This document shows, piece by piece, positions 15 to 6,564 of a stretch of 10,946 nt of DNA. The stretch comes from a virus. The notes under the pieces were generated by a model. It was not told the origin of the DNA and made no database searches. It saw only the letters and a program-made list of their open reading frames with translations. The stretch lies in the UHGV virus genome UHGV-0116491; one strand, 5' to 3'. Both the position numbers and the translations under genes were made by a program. Positions within the stretch are counted from its first letter, which is position 1. Each line of letters starts with the position of its first letter.

Positions 15-20
15 TATAAT
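15..20 (+). promoter_or_regulatory. Possible -10 hexamer (TATAAT) for the 50..586 gene; a -35 would lie outside the window
   Basis: Exact TATAAT at 15-20, about 30 nt upstream of the ATG at 50; no -35 visible. Confidence 0.2.
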
Positions 21-49
21 GCGACTTTTAGTGTTCCGCTTGAGAGGCC

Positions 50-586
50 ATGATGCTTACCTTGGACGAGATAGGTCAATCAGTACGTAACAATATCCAG
101 TTGATTATTGATCATGTCGGCTTACCTCTTGCTGTTGGTCCGCTCAGTGATGATGATTACAAGATTCTGTGTGGTGGCTATGGTGAGCTTGAATGGGACT
201 ATGCGTTAAGTACCTATGGCAACTCCAGAGAAAAGTATGAGTTCTGCATAAAACTTGTTCAGCAAGGTCGGGTTCAGGGAATACCATCAGGAGCAGCAAT
301 TTGTGTTTATGGGGTTGAAGAAAACATCTTTCGTATCCATATGATCGAAAGGTTTTCTAGAGAAGATGAATCTCACCCATTGAAAGGGCGCATGGTTTTA
401 CTCACTCTTATGAGTGCTTTTATATTTTGTAAAGCTGTTGAATGTAAAGTTGTCCACATTGTAGAGCCAGTACCAGAACTGGTGCAGTATTACGAGTCTT
501 TTGGTTTCCGCATGGAACAGTGCGGTTATGTGATGTCGGCAGTCATTGATGAGCTGCAGGATATCTTTCTTAAATTTGCTCAGTAG
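50..586 (+). CDS. Hypothetical protein, possibly GNAT-family acetyltransferase-like (178 aa)
   Basis: ATG ATG start with GAGAGG 4-7 nt upstream; C-terminal LVQYYESFGF resembles GNAT motif B and HPLKGRMVLL a degenerate motif A. Fold assignment is by motif resemblance only. Confidence 0.55.
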   Translation: MMLTLDEIGQSVRNNIQLIIDHVGLPLAVGPLSDDDYKILCGGYGELEWDYALSTYGNSREKYEFCIKLVQQGRVQGIPSGAAICVYGVEENIFRIHMIERFSREDESHPLKGRMVLLTLMSAFIFCKAVECKVVHIVEPVPELVQYYESFGFRMEQCGYVMSAVIDELQDIFLKFAQ

Positions 587-691
587 GTATAGACGAGAAG
601 GGTCTACAAATTGTAGGATACCCGTCCAGATTACCTTAAAGGTACATCTATGGCAGTCGTTTTGTGCTTAAACTACTAAGAAACGATGTCA

Positions 692-712
692 CCAATCGAC
701 ATGATCGATTGG
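692..712. promoter_or_regulatory. Perfect 8-bp inverted repeat CCAATCGA-N5-TCGATTGG, candidate protein-binding site
   Basis: CCAATCGA at 692-699 and its reverse complement TCGATTGG at 705-712, about 70 bp upstream of the small gene at 783. Confidence 0.3.
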
Positions 713-782
713 CATAAGTTAGCGAAACAAGCTAGCTTTAAAGAAAGGGTTAGAGACGCCTTTACTGTCTCGGGAGTTTTCT

Positions 783-956
783 ATGAAAGATCAAAAAGCA
801 ACCAAGCCACAGGTTAAGTTCGACACAATGAAAGCATTCGCAGGTATGGGTGCTGCTGTTGAAGTTCTGATGAAGGCTGCTCCTAATGCGTTCACTCACG
901 CTACTGTCTCTGGTAAAGAGCAGCAGGGTAAGCTTCGTCGTCGCAAAGCAGCATGA
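783..956 (+). CDS. Small basic Lys/Ala-rich protein (57 aa), function unknown
   Basis: ATG at 783 with GGGAG (772-776) 6 nt upstream; stop TGA 954-956 followed at once by an intrinsic terminator. Below the ORF-track length threshold, so not listed there. Confidence 0.55.
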   Translation: MKDQKATKPQVKFDTMKAFAGMGAAVEVLMKAAPNAFTHATVSGKEQQGKLRRRKAA

Positions 957-974
957 TCATAGCTGGTGCTTTTT

Positions 975-1001
975 GAAAACCCGCCTGAAGGCGGGTTTTT
1001 T
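975..1001. terminator. Bidirectional rho-independent terminator for the converging + and - transcripts
   Basis: Stem CCCGCC (980-985), loop TGAA, stem GGCGGG (990-995), flanked by an A-run upstream and T6 downstream. It sits between the stop of the 783..956 gene and the stop of the minus-strand gene at 1004. Confidence 0.8.
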
Positions 1002-1003
1002 CT

Positions 1004-1285
1004 TTAGTGATGTTCTTTGTCCTTCTGTTTGACTGTTCTGACCTGTTCCCACTCGATACGTCCTTCTTCTCGCCTTTTGTCTATGTATTCCGCAAGATCT
1101 TGAATATTGATGCAACGTTTTGCTTTTTGTGATGTGCCGATGCGATATGTTGGAACGGGCAACTTACAAGCGTTTGCTTTTGCTTCTGCCGTGGCTGGAC
1201 TCATACCAAAGTACTTTTGGCTAACTGCTGAGAGTTCAATGTTTGGGGTATTGAATTCAGCCATCAGTAAAAACAAGGTGTTCAT
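1004..1285 (-). CDS. PrtN-family / excisionase-like DNA-binding protein (93 aa)
   Basis: ATG at 1285 (MNTLFLLMAEF...) with GGAG 6 nt upstream; the track ORF starts at an upstream GTG (1312) that lacks an SD. C-terminal INIQDLAEYIDKRREEG matches my recollection of pyocin-activator PrtN-like proteins found next to prophage int/xis. Last gene of the leftward operon. Confidence 0.75.
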   Translation of the reverse strand: MNTLFLLMAEFNTPNIELSAVSQKYFGMSPATAEAKANACKLPVPTYRIGTSQKAKRCINIQDLAEYIDKRREEGRIEWEQVRTVKQKDKEHH

Positions 1286-1321
1286 AATTTTCTCCATCAA
1301 AACCGGCTGCACCCGGGAAAA

Positions 1322-6101: not shown

Positions 6102-6147
6102 AAAAAGAGCGGTACCAGCCGGAAGCAAGTGTACAAACTGGTACCGC
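6101..6147 (-). terminator. Intrinsic terminator inside the early-left leader (tL1-like)
   Basis: On the minus strand: 10-bp perfect stem (GCGGTACCAG / CTGGTACCGC; plus 6138-6147 and 6109-6118) with a 19-nt loop, followed by UCUUUUUA. Confidence 0.5.
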
Positions 6148-6564
6148 CAACGCAGTGGCTGTTGTGGTGGGGTTGTCACTTAGGCGTATGGTCAACCTGA
6201 CAATCCGGTGTCCTCAACGGGGAAAGAGTAACCCCGCCATACTTACCGCCGCGCCATTTCGCGGATTACCACAACGCTGAGAGCACTTAGCCAGTTACGG
6301 CACCACACTTTGTCGCGGTTCCATAAATGCCCTCATCGTTGCACCCTGGTCTCTTCCCAGGCGTCAAACCGAATCGCCACGCTGGTTAGGCGTCTTATCA
6401 GCATCCTCATTGACTTGCACATTCCGGCTACCTGGTTTGTTTGCCCGAGCAAGGAGTGGATTGTCCCCTTTAACGTCCCCAGACCGCTAACGACGCATGT
6501 GCCATACGCCGTGTTACAACCAAATTTTGTTAGTACCTTGTTTGTAGGTCTGGAGAGAAAGATA

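Follow-up and report, generated by a model that had tools for sequence, protein, structure and literature searches.

A mobile two-gene cassette of a GNAT-fold protein and a small basic protein in the attL-proximal cargo slot of dusA-integrating mEp460-type prophages

What is the role of two small genes at the edge of a lambdoid prophage, when one of them resembles an acetyltransferase and the other has no obvious family? The question is raised by one end of a stretch of 10,946 nucleotides (here called the window) from UHGV virus genome UHGV-0116491. Two plus-strand open reading frames (ORFs), for a protein of 178 residues suspected to be a GNAT (Gcn5-related N-acetyltransferase) and for a basic protein of 57 residues, converge there on a minus-strand gene of the PrtN/excisionase family. 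An earlier account made from the letters alone (the sequence-only reading) took the two genes for accessory cargo of a lambdoid prophage, transcribed towards the leftward early operon, and suggested a tRNA-acetylating toxin of the TacT/AtaT/ItaT type whose antitoxin would lie immediately upstream. The arrangement and the cargo assignment are borne out by the present analysis, as is the GNAT fold; the assignment to that toxin group is not. The genes form a mobile two-gene cassette, which here fills a slot for variable cargo at the attL-proximal end of an mEp460-type prophage that integrates at dusA.

The window is a phage mEp460-type lambdoid prophage that integrates at dusA. Its positions 1-1320 share 99.2-99.7% DNA identity with mEp460, and its DNA is 99.8% identical to prophages of many E. 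coli chromosomes, those of O157:H7 and O111 strains included. The gene order in mEp460 is int (-), attP, gp23 (+), gp24 (+), xis (-), where gp23 and gp24 are the two genes in question; both are annotated coding sequences there, as hypothetical proteins, and in RefSeq E. coli genomes. Homologues of both reach Photorhabdus, Xenorhabdus, Morganella, Edwardsiella and Shewanella, and both are under purifying selection, the median pairwise ratio of nonsynonymous to synonymous substitution rates (dN/dS) being 0.13 for the GNAT gene and 0.16 for the 57-residue gene. Judged by their sequences, the two ORFs are real genes.

Their position at the end of the prophage is evident from the attachment sites. 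Alignment of attP with the attL of lysogens places the crossover near dusA codon 35, and the cargo starts directly past the P' arm, which bears GGGAACC repeats; arm-type repeats of this sequence stand on both sides of the att core. The phage has a dusA mimic of its own, covering about the first 35 codons, with 71% amino acid identity to the host's (loci L001 5802-5924 and L002 5796-5924), which presumably restores dusA at attR. In the lysogen, the 5' stub of host dusA ends about 125 bp upstream of window position 1, so that the host dusA promoter and a 42-codon dusA stub lie directly upstream of the GNAT gene and point into the module. Since no intrinsic terminator was found between the stub and the GNAT gene, read-through from the host dusA promoter is plausible. 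In the O157:H7 lysogen PV15-279 (L002 7322-9994) the prophage is degraded, with ISEc8/IS66 interrupting the exonuclease gene beside xis and several early genes reduced to pseudogenes; the GNAT pair is intact despite this decay.

The GNAT fold, for which structure prediction had been suggested as a check, is confirmed at the level of a predicted structure, and the 177/178-residue protein belongs to a small orphan family. The AlphaFold2 model, made from a 32-sequence alignment, is confident (pLDDT 92.7, pTM 0.89) and has GNAT topology, its elements following one another as b1-a1-a2-b2-b3-b4-a3-b5-a4-b6, the order of the superfamily. Foldseek searches of the PDB and of BFVD (predicted viral-protein structures) return generic GNATs at TM scores of 0.5-0.6; Gcn5/PCAF, NatD, RimI/RimJ and SpeG are among the good structural matches, and the TacT/AtaT/ItaT toxins are favoured no more than other GNATs. 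Neither the protein nor its family profile has a match in Pfam, NCBIfam or PDB sequences, nor the protein any in PADLOC, and its one library match is PHROG 4350, function unassigned. A profile search of 1.84 billion representative proteins gathered 93 clusters, without Pfam GNAT annotation, and found no bridge from the orphan family to any characterised subfamily; 1 of the 69 distant relatives scanned gives a weak Acetyltransf_1 match (E=0.006). The residues invariant in the family, E100 (b4), H97, H109-P-L-x-G113 and Y148-x3-G-F (a4), sit where GNATs carry the catalytic Glu/Tyr and the coenzyme A (CoA) loop. The b4-a3 loop (102-114) is longer than usual and runs H109-P-L-K-G113-R-M115, with an invariant G113 and non-canonical first and last motif positions. 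The protein of the window is acidic, with an isoelectric point (pI) of 4.8 and a net charge of -10 (family median pI 4.47, net -14, in 32 sequences); the canonical TacA-linked GNAT of a Shewanella prophage locus (L115) has pI 8.8 and net +4.

The 57-residue protein remains without an obvious family, as first thought: its one library match is PHROG 2741, function unknown, and searches of Pfam, NCBIfam, PADLOC and PDB sequences are empty. It is basic (pI about 10.2-10.5, net +7), and AlphaFold predicts a single helix (residues 15-37) with disordered Lys/Arg-rich tails (pLDDT 65). Its family has invariant G23, L29, A32, P34, E46 and G49 and a motif, M-G-A-A-V-x-x-L-x-K-A-A-P, that is still conserved at 27-29% protein identity. 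The basic C-terminus nearly always ends in -AA (RRRKAA, SRKVAA, AKAA). The RRRKAA tail resembles the C-terminal ClpX degrons of ssrA (...LAA), RseA (...VAA) and MuA (RRKKAI) (PMC8138137 Table 1), which suggests that the protein may be labile. Codon usage and low synonymous divergence are signs of high expression: 74% of the codons are optimal against 49-52% in the neighbours, 1 codon of the 57 is rare, and the synonymous divergence (dS) between E. coli and Salmonella is 0.08 as against 1.45 for the adjacent GNAT gene. The gene and its terminator form an island of 80-100% nucleotide identity in otherwise diverged flanks.

The linkage of the two genes runs one way. In all 105 loci retrieved with the GNAT gene (34 distinct protein pairs) the 57-residue gene follows 77-200 bp downstream, and the GNAT gene is never found without it (0/105). 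Co-oriented and adjacent, the pair occupies phage or tailocin slots of six or more kinds: at the dusA attL end (E. coli, Salmonella), beside the integrase at dusA (Morganella), in the late region after RusA/DUF968 and upstream of the lysis genes (Enterobacter), in the variable slot of a P2-like prophage, with gene A on one side and the portal gene on the other (Edwardsiella), within a contractile-tail cluster (Photorhabdus), at the edge of a phage-like element by host EamA (Pseudescherichia), at a prophage end (Shewanella frigidimarina, L018) and beside a CRISPR-like array (Xenorhabdus). The small gene by itself occurs in three lineages, always behind recognised toxin-antitoxin-type genes. In E. 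coli these are the Panacea-domain antitoxin PanA (PF13274, E=2e-19) and a 139-residue gene; in Photorhabdus they are YhfG-Fic. At a prophage end of Shewanella baltica (L115 1610-3920) a TacA1 (DUF1778; PF08681)-GNAT pair and a 269-residue/HEPN pair immediately precede an orphan copy of the small gene; in S. frigidimarina the GNAT pair takes this place. Among 5,426 complete E. coli genomes, the GNAT gene is present in 358 and the small gene with its terminator in 562.

Some of these settings have features of their own. The Xenorhabdus kozodoii pair (L012 4400-4864) directly follows repeats with a 61-nt period that look like a type I-E-like CRISPR array. The Photorhabdus pair (L013/L014) stands between two tail genes, a Pam3_gp18-like gene and the baseplate hub, and the Pseudescherichia pair (L015-L017) flanks an element with lysis and contractile-tail genes and without head genes in the stretch examined; both elements look like tailocin-type elements.

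The slot at dusA accepts other cargo, and this provides a comparison for the small gene. The PanA cassette consists of the gene for the 190-residue PanA protein followed, with a 4-bp overlap, by the 139-residue gene, which encodes a putative toxin (L021 2486-3474; L022; L119-L121). It occupies the same place in Lys8385Vzw, SKA5 and the prophage of enterotoxigenic E. coli (ETEC) H10407, after the attP P' arm and before the 57-residue gene, and is the alternative allele of the slot in ~200 of the 5,426 genomes. Its proteins are unrelated to those of the window pair, its order is antitoxin first, and it is not present in the window. The breakpoint of the allele exchange is the ribosome-binding site of the 57-residue gene (window ~770). 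In ETEC H10407 a CoiA-like gene of 344 residues is inserted between the small gene and xis (L119 3821-4855); the downstream side of the small gene therefore also accepts cargo. By these genome comparisons, the att-proximal slot of dusA phages is a hotspot with two alternative alleles, the GNAT pair or the PanA cassette.

A small gene that functioned independently would be expected to keep its constraint once GNAT was gone. Polymorphism was compared between E. coli- and Salmonella-type copies of the small gene that lie beside GNAT (n=76) and copies behind the PanA cassette (n=70). Beside GNAT there are 9 synonymous and 3 nonsynonymous polymorphisms; behind the cassette there are 3 synonymous and 15 nonsynonymous (Fisher p=0.0024). 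An earlier version of the test with 4 PanA-context loci gave p=0.12, and significance was reached after 65 more loci had been added. The changes in the orphans strike P34, L29 and A57, which are invariant in the family, and the near-invariant A33 and K50. K2E is counted in 69 of the 70 PanA-context copies, and cluster representatives with this change also include in-frame indel and truncated alleles. The K2E copies in the PanA context have lost the small gene's own candidate promoter and hairpin, and no small gene was found downstream of more distant relatives of the 139-residue gene. Because amino acid constraint collapses behind the PanA cassette, the small gene appears to be the dedicated partner of the GNAT gene, decaying when orphaned. 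This pattern of dependence is also compatible with an enzyme and its cofactor.

What the pair might do can be proposed with less assurance. Our preferred reading, which we put forward tentatively and at a little under even chances, is that of a reverse-order (effector first) toxin/antitoxin-like or abortive-infection/defence cargo pair. It is suggested by the facts that the GNAT gene is never alone, that its partner is dispensable when it is, that the two proteins have opposite charges, that the partner has the marks of an abundant, disordered and degron-tailed protein, and that the alternative alleles are of toxin-antitoxin type. The acidic orphan GNAT-fold enzyme would be the effector and, if unrestrained, would acyl-modify a basic target (a protein or polyamine-like molecule) and not tRNA; such a target is more likely than tRNA because the enzyme is acidic. 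The largely disordered 57-residue protein would serve as its dedicated neutralising partner, supplied in abundance by virtue of optimised codons, of a hairpin that stabilises the 5' end and probably of a separate promoter, and its RRRKAA C-terminus would make it a substrate of ClpXP. Once partner synthesis stopped, for example upon loss of the prophage or shut-off by an infecting phage, the enzyme would be freed. The pair would thus act as an addiction or abortive-infection module, transcribed in the lysogen from the weak -10 of its own and by read-through from the dusA promoter at attL.

Several observations weigh against a toxin/antitoxin-like role. Type II toxin-antitoxin pairs do not usually have a gap of 77-200 bp or the separate promoter that is likely here, the small protein is without a DNA-binding fold for autoregulation, and neither protein matches any PADLOC-DB 2.0 defence model (E<=1). 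With P-L-K-G-R-M instead of Q/R-x-x-G-x-G/A, the CoA pyrophosphate motif is non-canonical, and the GNAT fold may here be that of a protein without enzymatic activity. The polymorphisms of related isolates, which are not phylogenetically independent, were counted without a tree; the orphan copies of Shewanella and Photorhabdus look intact (dN/dS 0.16 between two Shewanella copies). Finally, a harmless enzyme with the small protein as its obligate substrate or cofactor would give the same asymmetry of linkage and selection.

The alternative that survives best starts from this last point. The pair might be a non-toxic moron, an accessory prophage unit that brings its own expression signals, in which the GNAT modifies the 57-residue protein (at its N-terminus or lysines) or uses it as an adaptor, and in which the modified small protein could itself be the active agent, e.g. 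a nucleic-acid- or ribosome-binding factor of lysogenic conversion or regulation. We regard this as unlikely, though it deserves to be weighed: it predicts one-way linkage and relaxed selection on orphans equally well, an acidic enzyme beside a Lys-rich basic small protein suits it, the structural matches (Gcn5/PCAF, NatD, RimI/RimJ, SpeG) act on basic tails or N-termini, and an abundant product is what the optimised codons point to. The small protein has no invariant lysine, however (K50 is often Arg; K31 may be K, R, Q, S or N), which is somewhat against site-specific lysine acetylation, and its N-terminus varies (MK or MS). The alternative cargo of the slot consists of toxin-antitoxin-type genes, and a degron-like tail would suit a labile neutraliser better than a stable effector.

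It is also conceivable, and in our view improbable, that the two genes are unrelated morons. The 57-residue gene and its terminator would then be a backbone or boundary element at the 3' edge of a cargo hotspot, and the GNAT gene, inserting upstream, would carry it along. The island of identity formed by the small gene and terminator in diverged flanks is what such an element would look like, cargo exchange breaks exactly at the small gene's ribosome-binding site, and the small gene also ends other cargo stacks at their 3' side in three lineages. Yet a mere boundary element accounts poorly for the collapse of amino acid constraint when GNAT is replaced, for the distant 139-residue-gene relatives that have no small gene behind them, for a pair kept whole across six unrelated slot types whose flanks differ, or for a protein motif conserved down to 27-29% identity.

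The polarity could be reversed, the small basic protein being the toxin and the GNAT the antitoxin. For this there is the precedent of TopAI-YjhQ, and the K2E change and lost promoter and hairpin of the PanA-context copies could be inactivating. An antitoxin may exist alone, yet the GNAT never does; ~200 E. coli genomes and two other lineages, on the other hand, have the supposed toxin alone and in an apparently intact form. One would not expect a toxin gene to have optimised codons and strong expression signals, and the small protein matches neither YjhX_toxin nor any other Pfam family. We consider this polarity most improbable.

The model of a TacT/AtaT/ItaT-type toxin that acetylates aminoacyl-tRNA and has a DUF1778/RHH (ribbon-helix-helix) antitoxin just upstream is scarcely tenable, since membership in this group fails on gene organisation (no upstream antitoxin), on profile match (no Pfam Acetyltransf match, unlike the canonical TacA-linked toxin of L115) and, with net charge as a proxy for an electropositive surface suited to aminoacyl-tRNA, on strong acidity, with fold scores that do not separate GNAT subtypes. 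In phage and lysogen alike, the upstream side shows the att site and a 40-42-codon dusA stub, followed in the phage by the integrase and in the lysogen by host genes, with no DUF1778/RHH-sized ORF and no other ORF of more than 43 residues. The upstream neighbours in other genomes are unrelated to one another (EamA, tail genes, integrase, a late-region 201-residue ORF after RusA/DUF968, the CRISPR-like array). It is on the downstream side that the conserved partner gene is found.

The positions of the genes and of their signals are collected in Table 1.

Table 1. The two-gene cassette, its candidate signals and the adjoining gene (window positions)
Feature	Position	Strand	Remarks
Candidate -10 TATAAT of GNAT gene	15..20	+	inferred from sequence
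Shine-Dalgarno GAGAGG of GNAT gene	42..47	+	from sequence; 5 nt from ATG 53, 2 nt from ATG 50
ORF 1	50..586	+	GNAT-fold gene as first listed, 178 residues from ATG 50
GNAT-fold protein gene	53..586	+	mEp460 gp23, WP_000956557, PHROG 4350; 177 residues from ATG 53; acidic family, no Pfam coverage
Palindrome-rich intergenic region, 196 nt	587..782	+	inverted repeats and candidate promoter
Inverted repeat ACCAATCG-N6-CGATTGG	~691-712	+	conserved palindrome
AGTTAGC...GCTAGCT-type repeat	~716-739	+	conserved palindrome
Candidate small-gene promoter	-35 TTGGCA 709-714, 18-nt spacer, -10 TAGCTT 733-738	+	read from conservation
Hairpin GAGAC-N9-GUCUC	753..771	+	abuts the small gene's Shine-Dalgarno on its 5' side; in all Enterobacteriaceae copies
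Shine-Dalgarno GGGAG of 57-residue gene	772..776	+	from sequence; 6 nt from ATG 783
57-residue basic protein gene	783..956	+	mEp460 gp24, WP_000654815, PHROG 2741; ends RRRKAA; optimised codons
Shared intrinsic terminator hairpin AAAACCCGCC-TGAA-GGCGGGTTTT	975..1000	both	strong for +, weaker for the - strand xis transcript
PrtN/excisionase-family gene, end of leftward early operon	1004..1312	-	Pfam PF11112 E=4e-23; PHROG 1300 'excisionase'; annotated excisionase in mEp460

The length of 178 residues first given for the GNAT protein corresponds to an ORF that is present; its true start is probably ATG 53, giving 177 residues, since the Shine-Dalgarno spacing fits this codon and all homologues and RefSeq begin at 'MLTL' (= ATG 53). 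The two genes had further been credited with signals of their own. Both have ribosome-binding sites and -10-like elements, but the consensus promoter scan called a full sigma-70 promoter at neither; the candidate -10 of the GNAT gene, which has no good -35, was not called. In four further genomic contexts of the GNAT gene, a TACAAT/TAAACT element stands at the corresponding upstream position.

At the small gene, the -35 (TTGGyA) and -10 (TAnCyT) are conserved in position across loci, and from this conservation we infer a candidate promoter, which the consensus scan did not call. Across 14 loci of Enterobacteriaceae both palindromes of the spacer are kept, 5 of 15 pairs showing compensatory changes, and the intergenic region folds with z=-2.2. 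As they overlap the candidate -35/-10, the palindromes could be DNA operators or RNA hairpins; the covariation supports pairing, and the same changes fit operators overlapping the candidate promoter. A 43-residue ORF within this palindromic spacer (686-817) was considered as a third gene and rejected, being unannotated in the records examined and without family match. Closer to the small gene, Xenorhabdus, Edwardsiella and the orphan Photorhabdus copy (L117) have stems (GAGA/UCUC, AGAGG/CCUCU) equivalent to the hairpin before its Shine-Dalgarno; the hairpin is missing where the PanA cassette has replaced GNAT.

The terminator, described beforehand as bidirectional, is strong on the plus strand, with an 11-bp stem, 6 GC pairs, U6, -19.3 kcal/mol and z=-3.7. 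The hairpin also folds on the minus strand, where, however, just 4 U follow the stem and the scan did not call it, so that it is bidirectional in shape only. It is conserved together with the 57-residue gene across unrelated flanks (78-96% nucleotide identity over 951-1000). Its 4-nt loop is flipped between copies, TGAA in the window (983-990) and TTCA in the O157:H7 copy (L002 6983-6990), on an identical stem. A scan of positions 1-1400 against Rfam at E<=1 returned solely sub-threshold matches, driven by the terminator.

Elsewhere in the window lies a copy of a prophage small RNA. sRNA-17, reported to lie in an mEp460-like prophage of E. coli K1, was compared with the module's intergenic region; it maps instead to window ~6103-6170. 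It is an ArcA-regulated prophage sRNA of E. coli K1 RS218, of which a short 'degenerate' variant is reported in many pathogenic E. coli (PMC7719688). The plus strand at ~6103-6170 matches its 5' part, with an exact 30-mer at 6109-6138, and since the 3' end of the 193-nt form is absent, the window copy is the short 'degenerate' variant.

A literature search on the accessions, mEp460, dusA with acetyltransferase, and GNAT with phage defence found no study of either protein. While the fold and the toxin-antitoxin logic are familiar, family, partner and architecture are undescribed. The type II systems built on GNAT toxins and RHH antitoxins (TacAT, AtaRT, ItaRT, KacAT) have their DUF1778/RHH antitoxin gene directly upstream and usually overlapping; the window pair has none there, and its downstream partner is unrelated to those antitoxins in sequence and without a DNA-binding fold. 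With a pI of ~4.5-4.8 the enzyme is acidic instead of basic, and it has no Pfam GNAT match. Owing to these differences its target is unlikely to be tRNA.

Two other systems of E. coli prophages bear comparison. PaaA2, of the paaR2-paaA2-parE2 system of O157 prophages, is a small intrinsically disordered antitoxin without a DNA-binding domain. The 57-residue protein is like it in being ~60 residues long, mostly disordered with short helices and prophage-borne, and in a proposed folding onto its partner; the two share no sequence similarity, the partner here has a GNAT fold and is not ParE, and binding is here a proposal. In TopAI-YjhQ a small toxin lies next to a GNAT-family antitoxin in an E. 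coli prophage-like element. The combination of a GNAT-family protein and a small protein on such an element is shared with the window pair, but the order is opposite (GNAT first here), YjhX_toxin is not matched, and by the pattern of occurrence the GNAT, rather than the small protein, would be the partner that is dependent or dangerous.

In its general organisation the cassette resembles the morons and defence hotspots of lambdoid and P2 phages (lambda bor/lom-type; P2 tin/old). It is self-contained, with its own ribosome-binding sites, -10 elements and terminator, it lies at att-proximal, Q-lysis, P2 A-portal and tail-cluster slots, and it is swapped between phages. Unlike the known content of such slots, it is a new gene pair without a match to any PADLOC model. 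If the toxin/antitoxin-like reading is carried further, the pair would found a new GNAT-based toxin-antitoxin or abortive-infection class, in which an acidic enzyme invisible to Pfam poisons the cell by acylating a basic protein, such as a ribosomal or nucleoid one, in place of tRNA and is checked by a highly expressed, disordered and ClpXP-labile 57-residue antitoxin from the downstream gene, the cassette hopping among hotspots. This wider proposal we hold to be possible but doubtful. The hotspots in which the cassette is found (att-proximal, Q-lysis, P2 and tail-cluster) belong to temperate phages and tailocins of Enterobacterales and Shewanella.

If the pair is a working module, it would add a GNAT effector lineage that Pfam, NCBIfam and PADLOC miss, and one with an architecture unlike that of known GNAT toxins, the effector gene coming first and the disordered partner being without a DNA-binding fold. 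Among pathogenic E. coli the cassette is common (it is present in 358 of 5,426 complete genomes, or about 6.6%, O157:H7 and O111 strains included) and is also found in Salmonella. Because its position at the prophage end lets the host dusA promoter read in, every lysogen may express it. Finally, the way in which the partner decays once orphaned is a simple population-genetic signal that could serve to pair genes of unknown function elsewhere.

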